Source: a virus (taxonomy: Duplodnaviria > Heunggongvirae > Uroviricota > Caudoviricetes). From it: DNA of 14,915 nucleotides. Below the pieces are notes generated by a model, which was not told the DNA's origin, searched no databases, and saw only the letters and a list, made by a program, of their open reading frames with translations. Position 1 is the stretch's first letter; every line of letters begins with the position of its first letter. The stretch lies in IMG/VR virus record IMGVR_UViG_2537562091_000005; one strand, 5' to 3'. Position numbers and translations under genes: made by a program. Below, piece by piece: positions 1-13,587 of the stretch.

Positions 1-1236
1 CTACGATAACCGCGCATTCAACATGGCTATCTGTTCGTCGTTCATGTCATCAATCCACATACCGTAAATTTCATACACCATCTGCGCAGTTTCATGCCCC
101 ATTTGGCTGGCTATAAATGCCGGGTTCGCTCCTACCGTCAACAGCCAGCAGGCAAAAGTATGCCGCGTATGGTACGGATTACGGCGGCGAATACCAGCAC
201 GTTTTACTGCTGCATTCCACCTTGCCCCCAAACTGCTTACCGAGTAATAAGGTTTTTGTTTTCCGTTACACACCCTGGGCATGAAAACAAAATGCAGTTT
301 TTGCTTTTCGGTTCTGCCGTACTCCCGATGATAAAAGGTGATTTCGCTTTTGCGATGATGCCCGGTCAGTTTGTATTGCTCCTTCAGTGCTTCAAGAGCA
401 GGCTGCAGTAGTGTTACTGTTCGGATCCCGGCATTTGTTTTTGGGGGACCGAACATATCAAGTATCGTCAGGTTTCTTCTGACATTCACTATTCCCTTTT
501 CGAGATCCACATCCTCCCACGCCAGAGCTGCCAGTTCCCCGTGACGAAGTCCTGAGTAAACGGCAAATTTCCACAAGTTCTGGCTCTGTCCTTTTTCACT
601 TTCCATTAATGCATTGAATTCTGTTTTAGATAACGGATCAGGCTTTATTCTGTTTCGCTGTAATTTTTTTACTCCTTCAAATGGTTTGGTTGATATAAAT
701 CCCGACTGATACGCAAAACGCAACAGCGAACAGAGCAGGGCGATATAGTTATCAACTGTGCGCACGGTTCTTCCTTTTTTGTTGGATCTTGGATTATCCA
801 GGTAAAGCGTTTCTCCATGCAGCAGTTCATTCCGGTAGTTTAAGATATCGCTATAACGAATATGTGATATCGGGGTACTTTCACAAATTATTATTCTGAG
901 TGTTTTTAATTGTGATTTCGTTTTCTTCATTGTGTTTGTTGTTAACTCTGTCTCTTTAATTTTTGTCCAGATATCACAAAGCTCTCCGAACGTTTTTATG
1001 ACTCTCGTTGTCACCATTTTTGCCCCAGTGCTGGACTGGGGAAAACGTCTTAAATACTCAAATTCACCGGAGTTTATTTCATGAACTATCAGCGCTCTTA
1101 AATTTCCGGCCTTTTTAATATTACTGTTTGTAATCTCCCAGCCTTTTAATGTTTCCCGACATCGTTTTCCTCGAAACATGAACCAGATGCGAATGTATCT
1201 ACCTCTAATCTCGACACCTGTTGGTAATTTAGACAT
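1..1236 (-). CDS. intR: Tyrosine-type site-specific integrase (lambdoid, Rac IntR-like), 411 aa
   Basis: Complete minus-strand ORF (ATG at 1236..1234, stop at 3..1). N-terminus MSKLPTGVEIRGRYIRIWF and C-terminal R..H..R..Y catalytic region (HTRHTFACWLL) fit phage integrases; recognised from memory as Rac IntR. Low-GC composition. Start lies 1 nt downstream of the xis stop (coupled int-xis pair). Confidence 0.9.
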   Translation of the reverse strand: MSKLPTGVEIRGRYIRIWFMFRGKRCRETLKGWEITNSNIKKAGNLRALIVHEINSGEFEYLRRFPQSSTGAKMVTTRVIKTFGELCDIWTKIKETELTTNTMKKTKSQLKTLRIIICESTPISHIRYSDILNYRNELLHGETLYLDNPRSNKKGRTVRTVDNYIALLCSLLRFAYQSGFISTKPFEGVKKLQRNRIKPDPLSKTEFNALMESEKGQSQNLWKFAVYSGLRHGELAALAWEDVDLEKGIVNVRRNLTILDMFGPPKTNAGIRTVTLLQPALEALKEQYKLTGHHRKSEITFYHREYGRTEKQKLHFVFMPRVCNGKQKPYYSVSSLGARWNAAVKRAGIRRRNPYHTRHTFACWLLTVGANPAFIASQMGHETAQMVYEIYGMWIDDMNDEQIAMLNARLS

Positions 1237-1237
1237 A

Positions 1238-1453
1238 TCATGAGTCTTTGATAAACTGATTTATCTTTGGATAGTTGTACCAGATAATCCCTCGTTTGCT
1301 GTCTGGCTTACCTAAAGGAGATACTCGTTTGAAGTGGAAGCCCTCCACCCAACAGTTCTGGCGGTATGCTTCAATTTGTCTGGCCCCCAGACCAGTGCGA
1401 AGCATCAGGCCGTATTCAACCATCCACTCTTCATTAAAGATTACTTGTGCCAT
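1238..1453 (-). CDS. xisR: Excisionase-like protein (XisR/YdaQ-like), 71 aa from the ATG with a Shine-Dalgarno (SD); ORF track extends to 1477
   Basis: Small ORF directly upstream of int on the same strand. The second in-frame ATG ([10 protein letters not shown]...) is preceded by GAGGTG with a 5-nt spacer, so I prefer 1453 as the start; the upstream ATG at 1477 has no SD. Position and size match an excisionase. Function is inferred from synteny and memory. Confidence 0.65.
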
Positions 1454-1531
1454 CGCATCACCTCTGGCAGGCGCCAATGTTAGACTGAAATTGACGCCCG
1501 ATGTTGATTATTCATAATCAGCTATGAAGTT

Positions 1532-1741
1532 TTAATTTGAATACAATGCAATTCTCGAGGACTGAAGTTTCTCGCAATTAAAATTTATCAGTTTTACTTT
1601 CTGCTCTCTGGAAACGCCTGCTTCTTTTTTACCTGAGAGCATTTTTTCGCATTCTGATTTCGTTAGTTTAGATTTTGAATATCTTGTCCAGTTAGTAGGA
1701 GTGCCACCTTCCTTTTCAATAGTGGCGGTAATTTTATACAT
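1532..1741 (-). CDS. ydaC: Small prophage protein (YdaC-like, 69 aa), function unknown
   Basis: Minus-strand ORF; the preferred start (MYKITATIEKEGG...) has GGAGG 5 nt upstream, and the longer 93-aa version starts without an SD. The int-xis-ydaC order matches the Rac left arm as I remember it. The symbol rests on synteny, not verified homology. Confidence 0.5.
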   Translation of the reverse strand: MYKITATIEKEGGTPTNWTRYSKSKLTKSECEKMLSGKKEAGVSREQKVKLINFNCEKLQSSRIALYSN

Positions 1742-1995
1742 GAACACCTCCATTATTATTTCCAGTGGTTCGTTTATTCCATCTTTCGAGTGCTTCTTTT
1801 TCACTTCCACCATAACCGGTTCGGGATTCGCATCCGTTACCCTGGAACGCCGTGCATTACTGGCGGCGCAGGAAGCGTTAAGTACGGCAATTGATGCGCA
1901 TGATGATGCAGTCCAAGCCGTTTACCGGAAAGCGCATTTCAGCGGCGGCGGTTCTCCTAGCGATTCTGTCGTAGTGCATTGATTGAAATTAATCG

Positions 1996-2445: not shown

Positions 2446-2563
2446 AAAAACGGATCAAAAAGCGTTATCTGCATCATCGTCTGCCTGTCATGGGCTGTTA
2501 ATCATTACCGTGATAACGCCACCGCCTACAAAGAGCAGCGCGACAAAAATGCCAGAGAACTGA
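2060..2563 (+). CDS. Phage protein, YdaW-like N-terminal fragment; last ~30 codons are out-of-frame Rz sequence (pseudogene-like fusion)
   Basis: ATG at 2060 with SD AAGGTGA 6 nt upstream. The N-terminal ~130 aa ([46 protein letters not shown]...) look like a real phage protein, possibly DNA-binding or replication-associated. From about 2461 the ORF reads through the Rz N-terminal region in another frame (ending ...[19 protein letters not shown]), which indicates a deletion fusion. Family assignment is uncertain. Confidence 0.5.
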
Positions 2564-2895
2564 AGCTGGCGAACGCGGCAATTACTGACATGCAGATGCG
2601 TCAGCGTGATGTTGCTGCGCTCGATGCAAAATACACGAAGGAGTTAGCTGATGCGAAAGCTGAAAATGATGCTCTGCGTGATGATGTTGCCGCTGGTCGT
2701 CGTCGGTTGCACATCAAAGCAGTCTGTCAGTCAGTGCGTGAAGCCACCACCGCCTCCGGCGTGGATAATGCAGCCTCCCCCCGACTGGCAGACACCGCTG
2801 AACGGGATTATTTCACCCTCCGGGAACGACTGGTAATGATGCAGGCCCAACTTGAAGGTGCTCAGCAATACATAACCGAACAGTGTTTAAAGTAA
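2464..2895 (+). pseudogene. rzpR: Rz-like inner-membrane spanin gene, 5'-truncated (start and first ~12 codons lost)
   Basis: The frame open from 2431 translates to ...[102 protein letters not shown]..., which I recognise as lambda Rz from its TM segment onward. There is no start codon upstream of the TM segment; the first ATG (2590) gives a 101-aa product lacking the membrane anchor. Confidence 0.8.
2651..2836 (+). CDS. rzoR: Rz1-like outer-membrane lipoprotein spanin (o-spanin), 61 aa, nested in the +1 frame of Rz
   Basis: [24 protein letters not shown]... has a signal peptide with lipobox LVVVGC and a proline-rich mature part ([15 protein letters not shown]), typical of Rz1. SD AAGGAG lies 7 nt upstream of the ATG. 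The embedded arrangement inside Rz is the classical spanin architecture. Confidence 0.85.
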
Positions 2896-2981
2896 AATCT
2901 TAACTACAATATGATTCATTTTGATGATTGTTTCATAAGGAACAGTGAAGTAAGATCTAAGAGGAGTTAAATTTTATACAG

Positions 2982-3015
2982 TATAATCATAATATTGCAG
3001 CAAGGTGGTTATAAT
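2982..3015 (+). promoter_or_regulatory. Putative promoter -10 elements upstream of trkG (TATAAT at 2982..2987 and 3010..3015)
   Basis: AT-rich intergenic region with two perfect TATAAT hexamers; no good -35 match. Pattern-based only. Confidence 0.2.
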
Positions 3016-3032
3016 TGAAAGAATATTTAGAT

Positions 3033-4490
3033 ATGAATACATCTCATGTAAGAGTTGTTACTCATATGTGTGGGTTCCTGGTTTGGCTCTATAGTCTTTC
3101 AATGTTGCCACCAATGGTTGTAGCATTGTTTTATAAAGAAAAAAGCCTGTTCGTTTTCTTTATAACTTTCGTTATATTTTTTTGTATTGGTGGCGGAGCG
3201 TGGTATACAACTAAGAAATCTGGCATTCAATTACGTACCCGTGATGGGTTTATTATAATTGTAATGTTTTGGATTTTGTTTTCTGTTATTAGTGCATTCC
3301 CTTTATGGATTGACTCAGAACTTAATTTAACGTTCATTGATGCTCTGTTTGAAGGGGTTTCTGGAATAACAACAACAGGAGCAACTGTAATTGATGATGT
3401 TAGTTCATTACCTCGGGCATATTTGTACTATCGGTCACAGTTAAATTTTATAGGTGGTTTAGGAGTTATTGTTCTGGCGGTTGCTGTATTGCCATTATTG
3501 GGTATTGGTGGTGCAAAGCTTTATCAGTCAGAAATGCCGGGGCCATTTAAGGATGACAAACTCACTCCCCGCCTGGCCGATACGTCACGGACACTGTGGA
3601 TAACTTATTCTTTATTAGGTATTGCTTGTATTGTCTGTTATAGACTTGCAGGAATGCCTTTGTTTGATGCTATTTGTCACGGGATTTCCACAGTTTCGCT
3701 TGGTGGTTTCTCAACTCATAGCGAGAGTATCGGATATTTTAATAACTATTTGGTTGAGCTGGTGGCTGGTTCTTTTTCCCTGCTATCGGCTTTCAACTTC
3801 ACTCTTTGGTATATTGTTATTAGCAGGAAAACGATAAAACCTTTAATCAGAGATATTGAACTTCGTTTCTTTCTGTTAATAGCCTTAGGGGTGATCATTG
3901 TTACCTCTTTCCAGGTCTGGCATATAGGTATGTATGACTTGCATGGAAGTTTTATTCATTCGTTTTTTCTTGCCAGCTCCATGCTCACTGATAATGGTTT
4001 AGCTACGCAGGATTATGCAAGCTGGCCCACGCACACGATAGTGTTTTTGCTGTTGTCAAGTTTCTTTGGGGGATGTATAGGTTCAACTTGTGGTGGAATT
4101 AAGTCACTTCGATTTCTTATACTTTTCAAACAAAGCAAACACGAGATAAATCAGCTTTCTCATCCCAGAGCGTTGTTGAGTGTAAATGTAGGAGGGAAGA
4201 TAGTTACAGATCGTGTAATGAGGTCTGTATGGAGTTTCTTTTTTCTTTATACTCTCTTCACGGTGTTTTTTATACTGGTGTTAAATGGTATGGGATATGA
4301 TTTTCTTACATCATTTGCAACAGTGGCTGCATGTATTAATAATATGGGATTAGGTTTTGGGGCTACTGCATCGTCATTCGGAGTGCTTAATGACATTGCA
4401 AAATATTTAATGTGCATAGCTATGATTCTTGGTCGCCTTGAAATTTATCCTGTTATTATATTGTTTTCAGGTTTTTTTTGGCGCTCCTAA
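3033..4490 (+). CDS. trkG: Trk-system potassium uptake membrane protein TrkG (prophage-encoded moron), 485 aa
   Basis: Polytopic membrane protein (MNTSHVRVVTHMCGFLVWLYSLSMLPPMVVALFYKEK...) with repeated glycine-rich selectivity-filter-like motifs typical of TrkH/TrkG; recognised as Rac TrkG. Markedly AT-rich relative to neighbours. Start ambiguity: ATG 3033 has no SD, whereas in-frame TTG 3015 is preceded by AAGGTGG at a 6-nt spacing. Confidence 0.9.
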   Translation: MNTSHVRVVTHMCGFLVWLYSLSMLPPMVVALFYKEKSLFVFFITFVIFFCIGGGAWYTTKKSGIQLRTRDGFIIIVMFWILFSVISAFPLWIDSELNLTFIDALFEGVSGITTTGATVIDDVSSLPRAYLYYRSQLNFIGGLGVIVLAVAVLPLLGIGGAKLYQSEMPGPFKDDKLTPRLADTSRTLWITYSLLGIACIVCYRLAGMPLFDAICHGISTVSLGGFSTHSESIGYFNNYLVELVAGSFSLLSAFNFTLWYIVISRKTIKPLIRDIELRFFLLIALGVIIVTSFQVWHIGMYDLHGSFIHSFFLASSMLTDNGLATQDYASWPTHTIVFLLLSSFFGGCIGSTCGGIKSLRFLILFKQSKHEINQLSHPRALLSVNVGGKIVTDRVMRSVWSFFFLYTLFTVFFILVLNGMGYDFLTSFATVAACINNMGLGFGATASSFGVLNDIAKYLMCIAMILGRLEIYPVIILFSGFFWRS

Positions 4491-4576
4491 TATATGGCTG
4501 ATTTATAATTGTGAGTTTAATATTATGTTGACTCACTCATTGATCCAATACCTAACTTTACCAGCAACACCTCCGC

Positions 4577-4610
4577 CCCCAGTAGCACTGGCTGCTGGGG
4601 TGCGTTTTAT
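4577..4610 (+). terminator. Possible intrinsic terminator downstream of trkG
   Basis: CCCCAG (4577..4582) pairs with CTGGGG (4595..4600) around a 12-nt loop, followed by TGCGTTTTATT. The long loop makes it a weak candidate. Confidence 0.3.
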
Positions 4611-4627
4611 TCATAAAGCAAGGATGT

Positions 4628-5419
4628 ATGAGCGAGAAATTAAAGATAGTCTATCGCCCATTACAAGAATTGTCACCGTATGCGCACAACGCCAGGACGC
4701 ACAGCCCTGAGCAGGTGGCACAACTGGTAGAAAGTATTAAGCAATTCGGCTGGACTAATCCGGTGCTGATTGACGAAAAGGGCGAAATTATTGCGGGTCA
4801 CGGTCGTGTTATGGCGGCTGAAATGCTCAAAATGGATTCTGTTCCGGTCATTGTTCTGTCTGGCCTGACGGATGAGCAGAAAAAGGCGTACCGCCTGGCA
4901 GATAATCGCCTGCCGATGAATGCTGGCTGGGATGAAGATCTGTTGCGGATGGAGCTGTCGGACCTAATCAATGCTGATTTTGATGTCTCCCTGACAGGCT
5001 TCATCCCGACAGAAATTGATGAACTGTTGACGGATGTTTTGCCCGGTACAGGAAATGAGGAGGAGCCGTATACGACGAAAATTGATACGCCTGTTTATGA
5101 GCCGTCGGGCGGTAAACCGGATATCAGTGAACTGTACGACGATACGAAAACGCAGGAGCTGATCAGCCGGATACGTTCGGCTTCCCTTGAGCCTGATATT
5201 GAGAAATTCCTCCTGTGTGCGGCAGAACGTCACACGGTGTTTAATTTCAGCAGAATTGCGGACTATTACGCTCACGCCCCCGCTGAAATTCAGTGTTTTT
5301 TCGAGGAGTCGGCGCTGGTGATCATTGATTATCAGCAGGCTATTGAAAATGGATTTGTCCGGATGACGCAGCGCATGGTGGAGATCATGCATGGTGGTGA
5401 GGAGGAGGAATATGCGTGA
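4628..5419 (+). CDS. ParB-like nuclease N-terminal domain protein (ParB/Srx superfamily), 263 aa
   Basis: N-terminal region IVYRPLQELSPYAHNARTHSPEQVAQLVESIKQFGWTNPVLIDEKGEIIAGHGRVMAA fits the ParB N-terminal fold (conserved NAR..S and GHGR motifs), followed by an acidic C-terminal extension. AGGA lies 3 nt upstream of the ATG. No methyltransferase motifs are visible. Confidence 0.7.
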   Translation: MSEKLKIVYRPLQELSPYAHNARTHSPEQVAQLVESIKQFGWTNPVLIDEKGEIIAGHGRVMAAEMLKMDSVPVIVLSGLTDEQKKAYRLADNRLPMNAGWDEDLLRMELSDLINADFDVSLTGFIPTEIDELLTDVLPGTGNEEEPYTTKIDTPVYEPSGGKPDISELYDDTKTQELISRIRSASLEPDIEKFLLCAAERHTVFNFSRIADYYAHAPAEIQCFFEESALVIIDYQQAIENGFVRMTQRMVEIMHGGEEEEYA

Positions 5420-5498
5420 TGATTTTTGCGCCTTTATTCTGACTCACGGGCGACCGGACAAAGTTCTGACTTACCGAACGTTGCGTCGTGCTGGCTAG
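5412..5498 (+). pseudogene. 28-codon gene stub (MRDDFCAFILTHGRPDKVLTYRTLRRAG) with strong SD, likely remnant 5' end of a deleted or frameshifted gene
   Basis: ATG at 5412 is preceded by GGAGGAGGAA and overlaps the ParB-like stop (5417..5419), a coupled arrangement. It stops after 28 codons at TAG 5496..5498. The long capsid ORF is in a different frame. Confidence 0.3.
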
Positions 5499-6544
5499 CA
5501 AAAAACGCAAAAGCTGACGCCGCAGCAAAAGATCAGACGGTAACCGCGCCAGTTGCGCCTGAGGCGAAAACCGAAGATATCGTACCGGGGCCGTCAGCTC
5601 CGAATACCGGTGATCAAAATATTGGCACTGTTGATGTGAAAATTACTAAATCCAAAATGGCACCGGTTAAATGGAATGGTGAAGAACAACTGGCTCTTGG
5701 CCCTTCAGGGACTTACAACACCATTCTGGCTGATCAGTTTAAGCAGGCTTTTCGCGCCCTTGCAAACGAGGTTGAGGCTGATCTTGGTGCGTTGTATTTC
5801 GGTGCTTCCCGCGCCGTGGGAACCGCAGGGACAACGCCGTTTGGTGTTAAAGATGATCTTTCTGATGCTGCTCTGGCTCGTCAGGTTCTGGAGGATAACG
5901 GCGCACCGACAACCGATCTGCAGATGGTGCTTGGCTCCAGTGCCATTGCTAATTTGCGCGGAAAACAGTCTGTACTGTTTAAAGTGAATGAATCCGGCAC
6001 TGAACAGCTACTGCGTGAGGGCGTGTTGGGGCGTCTGGAGGGATTCAATATTCACAGTTCGGCAGGTGTAAAACGAGCGCCAAAGGTTGCTGCAACTGGT
6101 TATCTCGTGAATGGCGAGAAAAAAGAAGGCGATGTTCTTATTTCCATTGATACTGGTTCGGGGAGTATTTCTGCAGGTCAGATTGTTACGTTCGCTGGCG
6201 ATCCGAATCAGTATGTTGTGGCAGCAGCGACCAGCAATCTGATTACTCTTGCAGCGCCCGGACTGCGTCAGGATCTGGCCGATGATACTGCAATCACAGT
6301 TGTTGGCTCCTTTACTGCAAATATGGCGTTTGATCGCAACGCGTTTCTGCTGGCATCCCGTACTCCGGCAATGCCGGAAGGTGGCGATAATGCTGATGAT
6401 GTAATGAATGTTACGGACCCGATTTCAGGGATTACGTTCCAGATTGCACTGTATCGTCAGTATCGCCAGGTGCGCTATGAAGTTGGACTGGCATGGGGTG
6501 TTTCATCAGTGAAGCCGGCACATGGTTGTCTGATTCTTGGTTAA
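5426..6544 (+). CDS. Phage major capsid protein, P22-coat-like family; 5' end appears damaged (no ATG or SD in frame until codon 78)
   Basis: 372-codon frame with segments resembling P22 coat protein from memory (FRALANEVEADLG vs P22 ARKLANNVELKVA; GQIVTFAGD insertion-domain-like region; C-terminal GLAWGVSS). The frame opens at 5423 after a TGA; the only early starts are TTG 5426 (17 nt from the SD) and unsupported GTG 5636 and ATG 5657. Probably a pseudogene or frameshifted gene. Confidence 0.5.
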   Translation: MRLYSDSRATGQSSDLPNVASCWLAKNAKADAAAKDQTVTAPVAPEAKTEDIVPGPSAPNTGDQNIGTVDVKITKSKMAPVKWNGEEQLALGPSGTYNTILADQFKQAFRALANEVEADLGALYFGASRAVGTAGTTPFGVKDDLSDAALARQVLEDNGAPTTDLQMVLGSSAIANLRGKQSVLFKVNESGTEQLLREGVLGRLEGFNIHSSAGVKRAPKVAATGYLVNGEKKEGDVLISIDTGSGSISAGQIVTFAGDPNQYVVAAATSNLITLAAPGLRQDLADDTAITVVGSFTANMAFDRNAFLLASRTPAMPEGGDNADDVMNVTDPISGITFQIALYRQYRQVRYEVGLAWGVSSVKPAHGCLILG

Positions 6545-6554
6545 ACATTCAAAC

Positions 6555-6576
6555 GGGGCTTCGGCCCCATTTTTAA
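6555..6576 (+). terminator. Intrinsic terminator immediately downstream of the capsid gene
   Basis: GGGGC (6555..6559), TTCG tetraloop, GCCCC (6564..6568), then ATTTTTAA, beginning 11 nt after the capsid stop. Confidence 0.6.
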
Positions 6577-6586
6577 TGGAGGGCAT

Positions 6587-6763
6587 ATGGCCGGATTAAC
6601 TAAAGAGCAAAGAGCACAGCGTGAAGCCGCACAAAAAACGCAAATTGAGTTAGTGGTTATGGTGACCGATTATCAGATGTTTCCCGGCGCACCAACTATC
6701 GCTAATGTTCATCCTGATGAAGTTGACAACTGGAAGGCTATGGGCTGGAAAACTCAGGAGTAA
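6587..6763 (+). CDS. Small hypothetical phage protein, 58 aa (not in ORF track)
   Basis: ATG 6587 preceded by GGAGG (4-nt spacer); translation MAGLTKEQRAQREAAQKTQIELVVMVTDYQMFPGAPTIANVHPDEVDNWKAMGWKTQE; stop TAA 6761..6763, 3 nt before the next gene start. It fills the capsid-connector gap with gene-like spacing. Confidence 0.45.
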   Translation: MAGLTKEQRAQREAAQKTQIELVVMVTDYQMFPGAPTIANVHPDEVDNWKAMGWKTQE

Positions 6764-6766
6764 CAC

Positions 6767-7162
6767 ATGATCACTTACGTGACCTGTGATGACGTTGATA
6801 ATGCGTTTGGGAACGCCTGGACGAGTGAGAACGCTAAAAATAAAGCTGTTTTAATGGCTAATGCCTGGCTTAATGGCTTCAACCTGAAAATTAACCCATC
6901 CCGTATTCCGGAAGAGGTAAAACTTGCGGGAGCATATGCAGCCAGAATTGCCTCATTCGGTAAGTTGTTTCAGCAGAAAAATGATTCTGGCGTTGTTATC
7001 AGTAAAGCCGTGTCGGCTGACGGGGTCAGTGTATCGAAATCATTTGCTGAGTTGCCATCAAACAGCACTGTATTGCTTGAACCCGATTTACAGCTTGCGA
7101 TAGCACTGCTGAAACCGTACGGACTTAGTCGCTCACAAGTCAGGGTTGTGAGGGGGGGATAA
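6767..7162 (+). CDS. Putative head-tail connector / head completion protein (gp6-like), 131 aa
   Basis: Compact ORF following the capsid gene; assignment rests on position in the head-completion cassette and size, with no confident motif. Confidence 0.45.
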   Translation: MITYVTCDDVDNAFGNAWTSENAKNKAVLMANAWLNGFNLKINPSRIPEEVKLAGAYAARIASFGKLFQQKNDSGVVISKAVSADGVSVSKSFAELPSNSTVLLEPDLQLAIALLKPYGLSRSQVRVVRGG

Positions 7163-7545
7163 TGGGGCTTCGTGAAGAGATTCAGTCAGAGGTTGCCGCT
7201 GCTTTTGATGAGGATTTAGCGGACGCCGTGAGTGATTTTTCTGGTTCTTACGTTACGCACCGGCACTGGGATCCTGTGACGGAAACTGGCGGCGAATCCA
7301 CCGCAATCTATACCGGGCGAGGCGTGTTGACACGTTATAAGCTGGGCAGAATTGATGGGATTAATATTTTGCATGGTGACCTTAAATTAACCGCTCTGGT
7401 ATGCGAGGTTACGGATAAACCAGCTGTCGACCATATTATTGAGATTTATGATCCTGTATCAAGGCAGTTACAACGATACGAGGTAATTACAGCAAGTGTA
7501 GATCCTTCCGCATCAGTTTACTCTATCCAGTTAAGGAGAGCGTAA
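7162..7545 (+). CDS. Putative head-tail joining / head closure protein, 127 aa
   Basis: Start overlaps the upstream stop (TAATG) with a G-rich SD (AGGGGGGGA). Function assigned from position and size only. Confidence 0.45.
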   Translation: MGLREEIQSEVAAAFDEDLADAVSDFSGSYVTHRHWDPVTETGGESTAIYTGRGVLTRYKLGRIDGINILHGDLKLTALVCEVTDKPAVDHIIEIYDPVSRQLQRYEVITASVDPSASVYSIQLRRA

Positions 7546-7926
7546 ATGGCAAAGGCATGGGATATAGAACCGTCAATATTTGCCGGGATGATTGAGGAAG
7601 ATGTAGGGCTGAAGATTCGCTACATCGCTATTCAGATTCTTACTGCTATTGATATTGCTGCTCCGGTTGATACCGGACGTTTCAGAAATAACAACCTGGT
7701 GTCGTTACAGCATCCCGATTTTGGTATATCTGATAACGTGGATCCGAACGGTACGATTGCTGTTCAGCGTGGGATCGGGGTTATTTCGAAAGCTGCAAAT
7801 TACGGAGTTATTTATATCCAGAATAACCTTCCTTATGCAGAGACTCTTGAAAACGGTCATTCACAACAAGCGCCAACTGGCGTGTATGCCAACGCTTTTC
7901 ATGGTGTTTTACAGGCTTACAAATGA
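7546..7926 (+). CDS. HK97 gp10-like neck / tail-completion protein, 126 aa
   Basis: Contains PVDTGRFRNN and LPYAETLENG, resembling the gp10-family signature (DTG..R ... YA..vE.G) from memory. Starts immediately after the upstream stop. Confidence 0.6.
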   Translation: MAKAWDIEPSIFAGMIEEDVGLKIRYIAIQILTAIDIAAPVDTGRFRNNNLVSLQHPDFGISDNVDPNGTIAVQRGIGVISKAANYGVIYIQNNLPYAETLENGHSQQAPTGVYANAFHGVLQAYK

Positions 7927-8360
7927 CGTTTACTGAAATCAGAAATACGGTTATTTCCAGAATGACGGCACAGACGATTATTGATGGAAAAGACGTATTG
8001 TATCCGAACGCGCCAACGTTCGATCCTTCCGGTAAGTTAATCTGGGCGCGGTTAAGTAATATTCCCGGGCAGGCTGGAGTTAATGAAATTGGCGCGGGGC
8101 CGATTGTTTATCGCACGGGGATAATCATTATTCAGTTATTTGTCCCCGCAGGTTCTGGTTCAAAACTCATTACTGAGACAGCCGATAAATTGCGGGAACT
8201 GTTTGAGTTTCAGGATGACGATCGTCTCAGTTACCAGGCTGTTTCCTCAACCAGCCAGACTACTGCGGACAGAATAACAGCACATAATTTACGCATAATT
8301 ACCTCTCGCTTTTCTGCAATAAAAAAGGCGCCATTTCTGGCGCCCGTATCTGGGTTATAA
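7923..8360 (+). CDS. Putative tail terminator / neck protein, 145 aa; 3' end runs through an opposite-strand terminator (possibly chimeric C-terminus)
   Basis: ATGA overlap with the upstream gene. The last ~15 codons (…SAIKKAPFLAPVSGL) are encoded by the hairpin that serves as terminator of the convergent J fragment, so the C-terminus may derive from a rearrangement joint. Confidence 0.45.
   Translation: MTFTEIRNTVISRMTAQTIIDGKDVLYPNAPTFDPSGKLIWARLSNIPGQAGVNEIGAGPIVYRTGIIIIQLFVPAGSGSKLITETADKLRELFEFQDDDRLSYQAVSSTSQTTADRITAHNLRIITSRFSAIKKAPFLAPVSGL
8320..8344 (-). terminator. Intrinsic terminator for the minus-strand J fragment
   Basis: On the minus strand: GGCGCCA, GAAA loop, TGGCGCC, then TTTTTTATT, beginning about 20 nt past the J stop (stem at plus 8327..8333 and 8338..8344; A-run 8321..8326). 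Confidence 0.6.
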
Positions 8361-8363
8361 AAT

Positions 8364-10925
8364 TCAGCTAATCGTGATGCCTGCAGTGGCTTTCTTCATC
8401 ACAACAACCAGCAAATCGCTGATACTTGCTGTGGGATACCAACCATTTACCCACCATGCTGATACAGAAAACTCCAGTGTCATTACGCCACTGCCTGCTG
8501 GCATATCAATAACACCCGTGTAAATCAGAGTATTATCCAGAGCCGTTCGGTTATAAATTTCAGCCCCGTTTTTCTTCACTATCAGGCGGCATGACGAATA
8601 AGTATCGCTATTCTCCCGCTCATGTCTGGCACCGCTGAAAGCCACCGCTGGAATAACAATTTGCCGGTCAAACGGCTGATCGTCATAAACCCTGACGGTA
8701 ATGGTCCCTGATGGCCACCGCTCCGGTGCACGGGAGTCCCGGGGGAAAGCTTTGCCCACTGTTTTAACGAGATCGCCTTCAATCTGGTTCGCGGACAGTT
8801 TTCCCAGAACCCGACAGTTCTCGTTAATCGTGACGTTGTTGAGCGTCCCGGAGTTCGCATTCACGCTACCGCTGATATCGGCATTTTTCGCCGTCAGCCG
8901 CCCGTCCGGTGTCAGGGAAAATGCCGGAGGATTACCGCCGCTGGTAATGGTCGGAGCCGTCAGGCGTTTCAGGAACACGTCGTTCATGAATATCTGATCG
9001 CCCTGACCAACAAACATTGGTCTTGTGTTGCCATTAGACGGATCAATAAACGCGATACGGTTAGCGGCAACCAGGAACTGGCTCAGTTTGCCTTCCTCCG
9101 TATCCTCCATGCTGAGGCCAAGCCCCGCGACATAATGCCTGCCGTCTTCGGTCTGCTCAATTTTGACGCCCCACATGGCATTCCATTTATCGTTGGCGTC
9201 TTTCCACTCTTTCGAAAACTCCTCCAGTTTGCTGGCGTTATCCTCCGTCAGCTCGACTTTTTCCAGCAGCTCATTGCCGAGATGGGATTCGGTTATCTGG
9301 CCTTTGAAAAAATCCAGGTAACCTTCCGCATCATCGCTCGCCCGACCAACAGCCTCCACGAATGCCGATTTGCCGACGGTGTTCACACTGCGGATATAAA
9401 AGTAATAATCACGGCCCGGTTTGATATTGGTACTGGCGGCTATCCAGTACAGCGCCGTGCCAAGATAGCGGGCTGTGGTTTCAACCTGTCTGATATCAGC
9501 AACCCGCTTTTCCGAGAACCAGAACTCAAACTGTACCGTCGGATCATAAACGGCAAGATACGGCGTGGCGGTTATCTGAAAATAGCCCGGCGTCAGCTCA
9601 ATCCGCGACGGTGCTGCCGGTGCGGCAATCCGGAACGATACCGATGCCGGATCGCCCTGCTGTCCCCACGCATTTGCCGCCCGGACTGTCAGCCTGTAGT
9701 TCCCCAGCGCCAGCTGCCTGAAGCGGTATGTGTTTTCCGTCGTCCTGGCCGTGCTGACCAGCCGCTCACTGCCGTCGTCCGCTGCCACGGTCAGGCGAAG
9801 CATAAAGCTCACCCCCTTCACCACCTTCGGCGTGTCCCAGCGCGCCAGCACCTGATATTCCCCGCTGTCTGCGGTGACTTCGGCAGTCAGGTGCTGCACT
9901 GCTGGCGGCGTGACACCATTCACCGTGCCGCTCTGGTCGCCGTCAAAGTGCGCCCCGTTATCCACGATGGCTTCTTTTTCCGGTACATGCTGCACGGCGG
10001 TGATGGCATACGTGCCGTCGTCGTTCTCACGGATACTCACGCAGCGGAACAGGCGCTGGCGCAGCGTCGGCAGCTTCAGCCCCCACACGCTGTATCCGGC
10101 AACGCCGTCAGGAACACGACTCACTTTTACCTTCACGCCGTCGGTGACGGACTGGACCTCCACGCTGACCGGATTGCCACTTCCGTCAACCAGGCTTATC
10201 AGCGTGGTACCGGAGGATGGCAGCGTGATTTCACGGTCGAGCGTCAGCGTCCGGGTCTGGCTGTTCACCGCCAGCACGCGCCCGCCGATGCTGATACCCG
10301 CATAGTCATCATCGCAGATTTCAATGACATCCCCCGGTACATGGCGAAGCCCTTCTGCGCCCACGCTGAAGTCCACGGTCTGCGTTTCCAGCAGCTCCGT
10401 TTTAATCAGCCACAGCCCGGCGCGGTGTGCCTGCCCCCGACTGGTACAGCCAAAGGCATCCATCTTCGTGACGTTACGGCCGTAACGGGCAATGGCCTGC
10501 GTATCCTCCACGAGCTCTGTCGCCGTCTCCCAGCCGTTATCCGGGTCAATCCAGTTCACCTCAACGGCATTATGGCGGTCCTTCAGGGCGCTGAAGCTGT
10601 AGCGGAACGGCGCGCCATCATCCGGCATCACCACATTACTGCGGTTATAGGTCCACACCTTATCCGACGGTCGGTCCTGCACGAACGTCAGCGTCTGCCC
10701 GTTCCATACCGGCATACAGCGCATCGCCGAGCAGAAATCACTGAGCACATCCCACGCCTTGCGCTGTGTGGTCAGCCAGGCATTACAGGTAATGCGCGGC
10801 TCCGTGCCGCCAAAGCCGTCCGGCACTGACTGGTCGCAGTACTGGCCGATGACATACAGCGCCCATTTGTCCACATCCGCCGCACCAAGACGTTTCCCCA
10901 TGCCGTAGCGCGGGTGGGTCAGCAT
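8364..10925 (-). pseudogene. Lambda J-like host-specificity / tail-tip protein, N-terminally truncated and inverted relative to lom and stf
   Basis: From [50 protein letters not shown]... to the C-terminus the translation closely matches lambda gpJ as I recall it, including FN3-like repeats and the C-terminal receptor-binding region. About 280 N-terminal residues of a ~1130-aa J are absent. The ORF-track extension to 11030 (GTG start, 35 non-J codons) is antisense to lom and has no SD. Confidence 0.8.
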
Positions 10926-11171
10926 ATGGCTTACAGCCGAGTGTCGACCTTCTCCGGGGATTATCTCCGCGTAACTGACAACAAGGGGAAAACGCACGAT
11001 GTGCTGACCGGAAGTGATGACGGTCGCCACAGCAATACGTCTCTGGCGTGGGGGGCTGGCGTGCAGTTTAACCCGACCGAATCCGTGGCCATTGATATTG
11101 CTTATGAAGGCTCCGGCAGTGGTGACTGGCGCACTGACGGTTTCATCGTGGGTGTCGGTTATAAATTCTGA
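10926..11171 (+). pseudogene. lom (Ail/Lom family outer-membrane protein) 3' fragment, last ~81 codons only
   Basis: C-terminus ...[43 protein letters not shown] matches the Lom/Ail beta-barrel C-terminus with terminal Phe. The signal peptide and N-terminal two-thirds are missing. Confidence 0.8.
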
Positions 11172-11197
11172 TTAGCCAGGTAACACAGTGTTATGAC

Positions 11198-11226
11198 AGC
11201 CCGCCGGTTCAGGCGGGCTTTTTTGT
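11198..11226 (+). terminator. Intrinsic terminator downstream of the lom fragment
   Basis: AGCCCGCC (11198..11205), GGTTCA loop, GGCGGGCT (11212..11219), then TTTTTTG. Confidence 0.65.
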
Positions 11227-11235
11227 GGAGTGGAT

Positions 11236-13587
11236 ATGGCAGCAGTAAAAATCTCAGGTGTGCTGAAAGATGGTGCGGGAAAACCAATACAGAACTGCAC
11301 TATTCAACTGAAGGCAAAGCGTAACAGCACCACGGTACTGGTGAACACGGTGGCCTCTGAAAATCCGGATGAAGCCGGGCGTTACAGCATGGATGTTGAG
11401 TATGGCCAGTACAGTGTCATCCTGCTGGTTGAAGGTTTTCCGCCTTCACATGCCGGGACCATTACCGTCTATGAAGGTTCCAGACCAGGTACGCTGAATG
11501 ATTTTCTTGGTGCCATGACGGAGGATGATGCCCGTCCGGAGGCACTGCGCCGTTTTGAACTGATGGTGGAAGAAGCAGCACGCAACGCTGAAGCCGCCTC
11601 TCAGAGCGCAGCGGCGGCAAAGAAATCCGAAACTGCAGCGGCATCATCGAAGAACGCGGCGAAAACCTCAGAAACGAATGCAGCTAATAGTGCACAGGCG
11701 GCAGCGACCTCACAGACTGCATCAGCAAACTCCGCGACAGCAGCCAAAAAATCAGAAACCAACGCGAAAAACAGCGAGACAGCCGCAAAGACGAGCGAAA
11801 CCAACGCAAAGTCCAGCCAGACGGCAGCGAAAACCAGCGAAACGAATGCCAAAGCCAGTGAAACTGCGGCAAAAAACAGCCAGGTTGCGGCAGCCGGTTC
11901 TGCGACTTCAGCAGCTGGATCAGCAACTGCTGCGGCTAACAGCCAGAAAGCTGCGAAGACGAGTGAAACTAACGCAAAGTCCAGCCAGACGGCAGCGAAG
12001 ACCAGCGAAACGAATGCCAAAGCCAGCGAAACTGCGGCGAAAAACAGCCAGGATGCAGCAGCCCAAAGCGAGAGTGCCGCAGCTGGTTCTGCAAGTGCGG
12101 CGGCTTCTTCTGCCACTGCATCAGCCAACAGTCAAAAAGCAGCAAAAACCAGTGAAACCAACACAAAGGCGAGCGAGACTGCGGCGACTAACTCGGCGAA
12201 AGCATCCGCTGCAAGCCAGATGGCTGCAAAAGCAAGTGAAGACGCAGCCAGAGAGTATGCAAGCCAGGCAGCAGAGCCGTATAAATATGTCTTACAGCCA
12301 CTGCCTGATGTGTGGATACCGTTTAATGACTCGATGGATATGATTACAGGATTTGGCCCGGGATATAAAAAAATAACAGTGCGCGATGATGTGGTCACTA
12401 TACCATCCGACAAAATTGTCCCGTTTTCCCGCGCGAGTTCCGCGACCTATATCAATAAGTCCGGCGCTCTTACCATTGCAGAAATTAATGAGCCACGTTT
12501 TGAAAAAGAAGGGCTGTTAATTGAAGGGCAGAGAACAAATTACTTCACAAACTCAAACGCTCCGGAATTGTGGAATAAAAATCCAGGCCTGAAGATAAGC
12601 GAGACAAAAACCGATTCCAGGGGTTTTAAATATGCAACGTTTACCCCAGAAAAATATTTAGATAGTTCTGGCTCATATGGAATTATATCAGGGGCAGCAG
12701 CAAATAAGATAGCGGTAGTCAAAAATGATGCAGTTACAATATCCTTTAGAGCAAAAGGGGATAATGTAAGATTTGCGGCTAGATTTGATAAAGGGGATTC
12801 GCCAGTTGCTGTAGCTGCCATTTTTATTGATAGCGCCACACTAGATACATTCACGTCTGGAGCAGATGCGTCTAATATTGCTGTGAAAAATGTTGTTCGT
12901 GACGGTGAGTGGGTTGCTGTAGAGGCTGTTTATAAAGTAACAGACGACTCTACATATATTAACGGCGCCATTCTGATGTCAAACAAACTGGGTGCTAATT
13001 TTGATAAGACTAGTTTTATGGATGTAACCACCCCTCAAATAGAGCTAGGTTCTTGCTTATCATCATTTATTGTCACTCCAGGTGTTCCTGCGACAAGGGC
13101 GAGTGATATGGTTATTTTTTCAACCAGAAATAACATAAGTTCTGTCCCTTTAAGCTGTCTTGTTGAAATACATAAAAATTGGGACTCTACGCCAAATCAG
13201 GCCCCACGAATTTTAACCACTATTGGCGTGGCGACTAATGATGAACAACTGGTATTGGCTTTCAGGACGCCTACAAGTCCGGATGTAGAACCTTTACCTT
13301 ATGTTCAGTTTGGAGTGAGATCTGCATATCTTAGTCCATCTGTGAAGGCCGGGCGCAAAATGATTGCTGGTTTTGTCTGTAATAGCTCGACTGAATTTCG
13401 TTGCTGTTGTAATGGTTACCTGTCACCTGTTCAGACTTCGTCATGGAAGAATACCGGAGCTGCACATGAAATACGTATTGGGGGAACTTCTGCTGGAGGA
13501 GAACGTCACTTGTTTGGTCACGTTCGTAACCTGAGAATATGGCATAAAGAATTAACTGATGCGCAAATGGGGGAGAGTATTAAATGA
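11236..13587 (+). CDS. Side tail fibre protein, mosaic: lambda-Stf-like N-terminus, Ala/Ser/Thr tandem-repeat shaft, divergent C-terminal region with possible lectin-like (LamG/concanavalin-type) end
   Basis: ATG 11236 with GGAG 5 nt upstream (ORF track starts at in-frame GTG 11230). The N-terminal ~115 aa (MAAVKISGVLKDGAGKPIQNCTIQLKAKRNSTTVLVNTV...) match the lambda Stf N-terminus from memory. Residues ~120-330 are KTSETNAK-type repeats. The C-terminal ~450 aa are low-GC and end ...GERHLFGHVRNLRIWHKELTDAQMGESIK, reminiscent of LamG-like domain termini; no His-rich GxHxH motifs. Confidence 0.8.
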   Translation: MAAVKISGVLKDGAGKPIQNCTIQLKAKRNSTTVLVNTVASENPDEAGRYSMDVEYGQYSVILLVEGFPPSHAGTITVYEGSRPGTLNDFLGAMTEDDARPEALRRFELMVEEAARNAEAASQSAAAAKKSETAAASSKNAAKTSETNAANSAQAAATSQTASANSATAAKKSETNAKNSETAAKTSETNAKSSQTAAKTSETNAKASETAAKNSQVAAAGSATSAAGSATAAANSQKAAKTSETNAKSSQTAAKTSETNAKASETAAKNSQDAAAQSESAAAGSASAAASSATASANSQKAAKTSETNTKASETAATNSAKASAASQMAAKASEDAAREYASQAAEPYKYVLQPLPDVWIPFNDSMDMITGFGPGYKKITVRDDVVTIPSDKIVPFSRASSATYINKSGALTIAEINEPRFEKEGLLIEGQRTNYFTNSNAPELWNKNPGLKISETKTDSRGFKYATFTPEKYLDSSGSYGIISGAAANKIAVVKNDAVTISFRAKGDNVRFAARFDKGDSPVAVAAIFIDSATLDTFTSGADASNIAVKNVVRDGEWVAVEAVYKVTDDSTYINGAILMSNKLGANFDKTSFMDVTTPQIELGSCLSSFIVTPGVPATRASDMVIFSTRNNISSVPLSCLVEIHKNWDSTPNQAPRILTTIGVATNDEQLVLAFRTPTSPDVEPLPYVQFGVRSAYLSPSVKAGRKMIAGFVCNSSTEFRCCCNGYLSPVQTSSWKNTGAAHEIRIGGTSAGGERHLFGHVRNLRIWHKELTDAQMGESIK
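11590..12240 (+). repeat. In-frame tandem repeats inside stf (11-aa sub-repeats; about 100-nt near-identical copies at a 168-nt period)
   Basis: The peptide AAKTSETNAKSSQTAAKTSETNAKASETAAKNSQ occurs twice, 56 codons apart (about 11786..11885 and 11954..12053). The two copies differ by six synonymous transitions. A third partial copy follows (KAAKTSETNTKASETAA). Confidence 0.75.

Follow-up and report, generated by a model that had tools for sequence, protein, structure and literature searches.

Does a run of coupled, intact-looking head and neck genes in an otherwise gutted prophage mean that selection has kept it there? This question is raised by a 14,915-nt viral record from Escherichia coli, IMGVR_UViG_2537562091_000005 (in full, the window), in which six same-direction open reading frames (ORFs) at 5426-8360 form a capsid-to-neck cassette with strong PHROG family matches. 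A preliminary description had left two answers side by side, selection (through use by a helper phage or a satellite-like lifestyle) and simply recent decay. Our analysis comes down on the side of the second. The cassette is very probably what ordinary recent decay has passively left of a full-sized Rac-type lambdoid prophage at ttcA, as rearrangement scars cut the genes at both of its ends and it has accumulated zero substitutions.

Breakpoints of the remnant and state of its genes

The window is 100% identical, over its full length, to scaffold GL872249.1 of the E. coli draft GCA_000191015.1, a scaffold-level assembly in which the remnant is flanked by dbpA-ttcA and, at its opposite side, by sitABCD. 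By its sequence the element is a Rac-family prophage remnant in the ttcA site of E. coli, and it showed all of the Rac-family features examined. Window positions 1-1840 share 99.9% identity with intR-xisR-rcbA of K-12 Rac and positions 2464-4881 share 99.4% identity with K-12 Rz'-trkG-ynaK. The Rac integrase and excisionase stand at the ttcA site in the order dbpA-ttcA-int (411 aa)-xis (71 aa), as read from contig L004, in which the remnant from int to tfa measures about 15.4 kb. The Rz'-trkG-ParB stretch at 2467-5419, with trkG as cargo, is 100% identical to that of the F5505-C1 prophage and 99.4% identical to that of K-12, and the head and neck block at 5496-8250 is a Rac module with 100% identity to F5505-C1 and 99.0-99.2% identity to vB_EcoS phages. 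As a prophage the element would not be functional, with the packaging, head, tail, lysis, replication, and immunity modules all missing or truncated and about 26 kb gone via four microhomology-mediated rearrangements. The "orphan" capsid and neck block is thus the remainder of the well-known Rac prophage.

The intact gene order was read from the FDAARGOS_497 and F5505-C1 prophages and a phage record. In full-sized Rac-type elements, Rz, trkG, ParB, a 310-aa gene, a 69-aa ORF, TerS, TerL, and portal (DUF4055) are followed by the head and neck genes, encoding the minor head protein, a DUF6651 protein in the scaffold position, the major capsid protein (379 aa), proteins of 58, 131, 127, and 126 aa, and the tail terminator (130 aa), and then by tube, ydaY, tape measure, M, L, K, I, J, lom, and stf. 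Full-sized Rac-like prophages encoding LT-II have already been described by Jobling (PMC5917428). Breakpoints were mapped by local blastn of the window against the F5505-C1 prophage (L002), which gave five blocks, three of them at 100% identity (Table 1).

The cassette at 5496-8250 is exactly the block between the deletion at junction A and the inversion breakpoint at junction B, which are tagged by the k-mers GTGCTGGCTAGCAAAAAACG and TTTCCTCAACCAGCCAGACT, respectively. Junction A removed most of the 310-aa gene, the 69-aa ORF, TerS, TerL, the portal (DUF4055), the minor head protein, the DUF6651 scaffold-position protein, and capsid codons 1-31, while junction B joins the tail-terminator gene to the inverted 5' end of lom. 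The microhomologies of 2 and 3 bp at these two sites are typical of illegitimate recombination. Elsewhere, junction 1 cost the element recET, kilR, sieB, racR, and ydaS, with homology to K-12 stopping at 1840 inside ralR. Lost at junction 2 were the replication genes, the Q antiterminator, the late promoter region, holin, lysozyme, and the 5' end of Rz. Junction 4 accounts for the J N-terminus, I, K, L, M, the tape measure, ydaY, the tube, and the 3' end of the terminator (8,484 bp), together with 304 bp of lom.

Within the cassette, the inventory given in the preliminary description, a capsid gene, a small ORF, and four coupled connector and neck genes, was borne out by strong PHROG and Pfam matches (P22_CoatProtein and Phage_tail_terminator_5 among the latter) and by the overlaps themselves: the start at 7162 overlaps the preceding stop, 7545 and 7546 abut, and 7923-7926 is shared by two genes. 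It had also been right that the window has no terminase, portal, tube, tape-measure, or baseplate gene, as judged from ORF layout and Pfam, and wrong in counting a protease among the losses, as none is annotated in the intact relatives, which have the DUF6651 gene in the scaffold position. PDB sequence searches with the capsid, terminator, and Ad1 proteins gave no usable matches.

The description of these ORFs as intact-looking holds for the four middle ones (58, 131, 127, and 126 aa) but not for the genes at the ends, of which the capsid gene is truncated at its 5' end and the last connector gene is chimeric. The cassette had been taken to begin at 5412. The ATG there, preceded by AGGAGGAGGA with a strong Shine-Dalgarno sequence, is instead the start of the 310-aa gene and out of frame with the capsid gene; it opens a stump that runs into a TAG at 5496-5498 formed at junction A. 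The capsid ORF matches the major head protein family phrog_283 (E value, 9e-126) only from profile position 31 onward, and it has been stripped of native residues 1-31 together with its start codon and ribosome-binding site. The sole upstream in-frame start is TTG 5426, for which no Shine-Dalgarno sequence lies at a suitable distance; an ATG follows only at 5657. At the other end, the terminator ORF keeps native residues 1-109 of 130; then come 36 residues of unrelated sequence, encoded by the inverted lom 5' end and the lom-J spacer, a foreign tail peptide (TSQTTADRITAHNLR...). The small ORF between capsid and Ad1 varies in length in intact Rac-type prophages, being 74 aa in strains 442/2 and M114 (L014 1593-1817 and L015 1592-1816) versus 58 aa here.

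The neighbors of the cassette are, as first described, a ParB-like gene on the left and an inverted J fragment on the right. The ParB gene was also called an orphan, which does not hold, since it is in its native position: the order trkG-ParB-310-aa gene-TerS is the same in intact Rac-type prophages and phages.

A consensus promoter scan of the plus strand from 4344 to 8500 found no promoter-like site. Together with the loss of Q and the late promoter at junction 2 and with the terminator-like hairpins between trkG and ParB and directly downstream of the capsid gene, this suggests that the cassette is essentially silent. Nor would the block at 5496-8250 be able to make heads or necks by itself, because the capsid start and 31 residues are gone, the terminator has a foreign C terminus, the late promoter, Q, portal, scaffold-position gene, and terminase are gone, and a hairpin follows trkG.

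Recent decay and its alternatives

The cassette has 0 substitutions in 2,755 nt, whether it is compared with the intact prophage of F5505-C1 or across all contigs that carry the remnant, and only three single-nucleotide polymorphisms, all in stf, separate the contigs of the window's own type. The events are therefore too recent for point mutations, which is why the four middle ORFs still look intact, and too little time has passed for either selection or decay to show. The inverted J fragment serves as an internal control: it is certainly nonfunctional and equally open, as an 888-aa ORF (8364-11030, minus strand). The ratio of nonsynonymous to synonymous substitution rates (dN/dS), which had been proposed as a check, was calculated. 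It is undefined for the remnant, which has no substitutions, and below 1 among intact copies; in comparison with strain 442/2, the approximate values are 0.06 (capsid), 0.27 (Ad1), 0.13 (Neck1), and 0.23 (terminator). These values reflect selection in functional phages, not in the remnant. Coupled ORFs that look intact in a gutted prophage do not, as a general caution, imply selection when there are zero substitutions relative to an intact relative.

The carriers of this architecture are few. An exact protein look-up found the chimeric terminator on 11 contigs from independent isolates, metagenomes, NCBI, ENA, and Logan. Junctions A and B had 0 occurrences in 5,426 complete RefSeq E. coli genomes, and junction A was absent from the GTDB species representatives. 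Four contigs (L004, L006, L007, and L009) have the junctions of the window. A second type (L005 and L008) has junctions A and B in common with the first and differs in a separate internal deletion in the inverted tail segment, which joins J to tube, and in independent early- and late-region deletions. L005 keeps the reciprocal inversion junction, where the inverted tube 5' and terminator 3' segment (L002 21209-21722) is joined to lom at L002 10558. It is a preserved intermediate of the decay pathway. The same contig has a 679-aa fusion ORF (10442-12481, minus strand; reciprocal-junction stretch, 12062-12575) made of the tube N-terminus and the J C-terminus.

The following course of events would produce these contigs. 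From an ancestor essentially identical to the intact F5505-C1 prophage, a 7.0-kb deletion from codon 29 of the post-ParB gene to codon 31 of the capsid gene would have taken TerS, TerL, the portal, the minor head protein, and the DUF6651 scaffold-position protein. An 11.2-kb inversion, with one 3-bp inverted microhomology in the tail-terminator gene and its partner in lom, would have turned the tail region around. Further deletions, different in each sublineage, would account for the missing early, replication, Q, and lysis genes and for the loss of most of the inverted tail segment. In the order that we infer, deletion A and the inversion happened in the common ancestor and the later deletions happened independently. 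The result agrees with published surveys of incomplete prophages, which report the loss of packaging, replication, and lysis genes and the keeping of integrase and tail fiber genes (PMC7744054), the same pattern as here.

Some observations weigh against decay as the whole explanation. Shine-Dalgarno sequences and coupling are preserved in the four middle ORFs, so that a read-through transcript would be translatable. In each of the two sublineages, the trkG-ParB-cassette block was left untouched by three or more later deletions, for which uniform placement of the deletions gave a crude, post hoc estimate of p ~0.03-0.1 that is confounded by linkage to trkG. We considered this placement probability as evidence and set it aside, on account of its post hoc nature and the trkG linkage; the dead J fragment survived as well.

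One alternative is that the cassette acts as a reservoir, homologous DNA that lets infecting Rac-type phages rescue or exchange head and neck alleles. Inducible or sequenced phages are 99.0-99.2% identical to it across the full 2,755 nt. Temperate phages have been reported to gain DNA from defective prophages by relaxed homologous recombination (PMC3945230), and defective prophages of O157 interact with one another (PMC2669165). A passive role as recombination substrate for incoming Rac-type phages is plausible, but it would be a by-product that any remnant offers and not a reason for retention, and this remnant has lost recET at junction 1. As the explanation of the cassette, we regard a reservoir as very unlikely.

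Slightly harder still to credit is selected retention, in which the neck and connector proteins, possibly with the capsid, would be kept for use by a helper phage or for a satellite life like that of the phage-inducible chromosomal islands that form capsids (cf-PICIs). The four intact coupled ORFs with ribosome-binding sites fit this idea, as does the sparing of the block in two sublineages, and an element of ~15 kb with integrase and excisionase and without lysis genes or a complete tail superficially resembles a cf-PICI. However, the terminase, portal, scaffold, HNH, replication, and regulation modules are missing, the capsid and terminator genes are truncated by the scars themselves, and a block with zero substitutions gives no sign of purifying selection. 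The population data point the same way. Among the 5,426 complete genomes, in which the architecture was not found, the cassette proper occurs in 795, essentially as a single copy (median, one place per genome). It is specific to Rac, so that any phage using it would be of the Rac type and have copies of its own. At a coverage of at least 80%, it was found in 725 genomes, compared with 721 for the packaging module, which nearly always accompanies it, and 683 for the tail module; the lack of enrichment over the packaging module, which leaves no excess of orphan cassettes, speaks against preferential retention. A first, whole-region count of 4,480 genomes with the cassette was wrong, as its matches came from the lom/J sequence at 8250-8360, and was discarded.

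Other Rac remnants lose exactly the neck genes that would have to be kept. In strain C9 (L013 4663-6846 and 10272-11414), a deletion associated with the insertion sequence (IS) IS5 runs from inside Ad1 to ydaY and removes the rest of Ad1, Hc1, Neck1, the terminator, and the tube, but the terminase genes, a portal split by IS1, and tail genes are still there. K-12 Rac is without everything from mid-ParB to ydaY, and further Rac copies have IS insertions or only partial cassette matches. The preliminary description would have accepted frameshifts or variable truncations in closely related strains as a sign of neutral decay. Such truncations exist at the level of the Rac family, in C9, in K-12, and through IS insertions.

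A more speculative possibility, to which we give only a very slim chance, is that read-through from trkG/ParB yields poison subunits that block head-tail joining of superinfecting Rac-type phages. The orphan neck proteins, the terminator with its foreign C-terminus, and possibly the N-terminally truncated coat protein would be the poisons, and the host could gain superinfection exclusion at the level of particle assembly. In this way the survival of the block through later deletions in two sublineages could be accounted for, and, if true, such interference would add an assembly-poisoning mode to prophage-encoded defence. Finally, there is next to no chance that the junctions are draft misjoins: the window does come from a scaffold-level draft and its junctions are missing from complete genomes, but 11 contigs, from independent samples and different assemblers, agree in the chimeric terminator and its flanks, and the sister form carries the reciprocal inversion junction.

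Recent decay of a Rac prophage remains the explanation that we prefer. The biological weight of the locus is then small, as one more snapshot of the dismantling of Rac by microhomology deletions and an inversion, with an intermediate surviving in sister contigs.

Flanking genes and other features

Rearrangement has also left its traces in the flanks (Table 1). To the left, an Rfam scan of the window gave RalA as the sole match, and a tRNA search of the window found none. The ralR toxin gene (~1734-1840, minus strand) was cut by junction 1 and lost its 5' end and start codon, so that the antitoxin RalA is orphaned. Junction 2 makes a 167-aa fusion ORF (2060-2563), in which the first ~135 codons of the gene in the ydaU position run into Rz-region sequence, and it leaves an N-terminally truncated Rz/"Phage_lysis" ORF at 2467-2895.

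The trkG gene lies in an island of low GC content (3001-4500; 0.35-0.41 versus ~0.48-0.51 in the flanks), and this composition and the strong downstream hairpin are consistent with trkG being a cargo gene with autonomous expression within the late operon. Downstream of it, PGAP calls ynaK a C-terminally incomplete pseudogene in F5505-C1 (L002 32064-32321) and FDAARGOS_497 (L001 12162-12419). The F5505-C1 ynaK DNA is 100% identical to window positions 4628-5419, which hold an uninterrupted ORF of 263 aa with a full-length match to the ParB PHROG. The pseudogene call appears to be modelled on the truncated YnaK of K-12.

In the right flank, an ORF of 564 aa on the strand opposite to J (9135-10829, plus strand) lies in a stretch of 60-62% GC and is probably a mechanical artefact of high GC. 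The stf gene has a 168-bp tandem duplication at 11736-12113 (two copies, 85% identical, built of 21- and 42-nt subrepeats). A very strong AT skew (0.49 at 11501-12000) falls in the same place, and the resulting fiber stretch is repetitive and rich in Ala, Lys, Ser, and Thr. Downstream of and outside the window, genomes of the window type have a deletion of ~254 bp in sitB of the adjacent sitABCD iron/manganese operon, leaving 167 aa versus 275 aa (L004 19383-19886, L007 15131-15140, and L006 19888-19897). This deletion is absent in the L005 type.

Table 1. Features, junctions, and blocks of homology in the window; L002 is the F5505-C1 prophage.
Feature	Position (nt)	Strand or orientation	Basis
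intR, Rac integrase, 411 aa	1-1236	-	ttcA-side prophage end; K-12 identity; Phage_integrase on L004 gene calls
RalA antitoxin small RNA, intact	1557-1735	+	Rfam RF02694, 225 bits, full length
Deletion junction 1, ralR' to ydaT'	1838-1840		K-12 (1-1840) and F5505-C1 (1838-2467) matches overlap
Block, L002 45717-45088	1838-2467	collinear	100% identity
Deletion junction 2, ~10.6 kb relative to F5505-C1	2464-2467		blastn blocks
Block, L002 34485-31452	2464-5497	collinear	100% identity
trkG, K+ transporter cargo gene	3015-4490	+	Pfam TrkH, E value 4e-144
Terminator-like hairpin between trkG and ParB, 10-bp stem, 7 GC pairs, T-rich tail	4577-4600	+	Hairpin scan
ParB-like nuclease-domain gene, 263 aa, full-length form of K-12 ynaK	4628-5419	+	phrog_620, E value 1e-90, full length; Pfam ParB_N
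28-codon stump of the 310-aa post-ParB gene	5412-5498	+	First 28 aa identical to L002 310-aa protein
Deletion junction A, 6,977 bp gone, 2-bp "TA" microhomology	5496-5497		blastn and parental sequences
Block, L002 24474-21720	5496-8250	collinear	100% identity
5'-truncated major capsid gene, P22-coat family, native residues 32-379	5498-6544	+	PHROG; comparison with L002
Terminator-like hairpin directly 3' of capsid gene	6555-6568	+	
58-aa ORF, unknown function, intact	6587-6763	+	phrog_1514; identical to F5505-C1 copy
Head-tail adaptor Ad1, 131 aa, intact	6767-7162	+	phrog_493, E value 2e-48; identical to F5505-C1 copy
Head-closure Hc1, 127 aa, intact	7162-7545	+	phrog_161, E value 1.5e-28; identical to F5505-C1 copy
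Tail-completion/Neck1, 126 aa, intact	7546-7926	+	phrog_169, E value 6e-55; identical to F5505-C1 copy
Chimeric tail-terminator ORF	7923-8360	+	PHROG tail terminator, E value 3.5e-34; Pfam; comparison with L002
Inversion junction B, 3-bp "CAA" microhomology, tail-terminator codon 109 to inverted lom 5' end	8248-8250		blastn and parental sequences
Inverted segment: first 49 nt of lom, lom-J spacer, C-terminal ~854 codons of J (8364-10927)	8248-10927	-	blastn; Pfam J domains
Block, L002 10556-13235	8248-10927	inverted	99.5% identity
Deletion junction 4	10925-10927		blastn; sister contigs
Block, L002 10251-6261	10925-14915	collinear	99.9% identity
lom 3' remnant	10925-11171	+	blastn; Ail_Lom Pfam on L004/L007 gene calls
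Side tail fiber gene, stf type, retained	11230-13587	+	Pfam phage_tail_N, E value 2e-67

Comparison with known systems

Domesticated particles of the gene transfer agent or tailocin type have a complete and conserved structural set that the host controls and that is inherited vertically throughout a clade. Here the set is incomplete, and the element was seen on only 11 contigs, with its junctions in 0 of the 5,426 complete genomes.

The likeness to cf-PICIs goes somewhat further. With a length of about 15 kb and an integrase, the element lies in the range of ~10 to 18 kb given in the defining passages of the cf-PICI report (10.1101/2025.02.11.637232), and it has a capsid-family gene, an adaptor, and connectors but no lytic genes and no complete tail. 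An Rz fragment, the J fragment, and the stf/tail fiber genes are the only lytic and tail remains, and this absence came about by deletion, not design. In contrast to cf-PICIs, the window is without the portal, protease, HNH, TerS, and TerL genes that define these islands in the same passages (10.1101/2025.02.11.637232). It is also without replication and regulation modules, as racR, ydaS, and the ydaV-type gene were deleted and only ydaT' and the truncated 5' part of the gene in the ydaU position remain. Its capsid gene is truncated, it derives from Rac by recent deletions, and it has tail fiber genes.

The full-sized Rac-like elements, for example, the F5505-C1 and FDAARGOS_497 prophages and phage vB_EcoS-683R6, share the cassette DNA with 99.0-100% identity and in identical gene order. 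They have TerS, TerL, portal, minor head, DUF6651, tube, tape measure, M/L/K/I, full J, lom, Q, and lysis genes, which were deleted here.

K-12 Rac (intR ... trkG-ynaK-ydaY-ynaA-lomR-stfR-tfaR) occupies the same ttcA site, is 99.9% identical over intR-xisR-rcbA-ralA, and shares trkG, the 5' end of ParB/ynaK, and the lom-stf region; both elements are riddled with deletions. What each has kept is different. K-12 retains recET, racR, ydaSTUVW, and the tail remnants ydaY and ynaA but is left with no ParB C-terminus, no tube, and none of the head and neck genes, whereas the window lost the early, immunity, and replication regions, carries an inversion, and keeps the full-length ParB gene together with the block from the truncated capsid gene to the neck.

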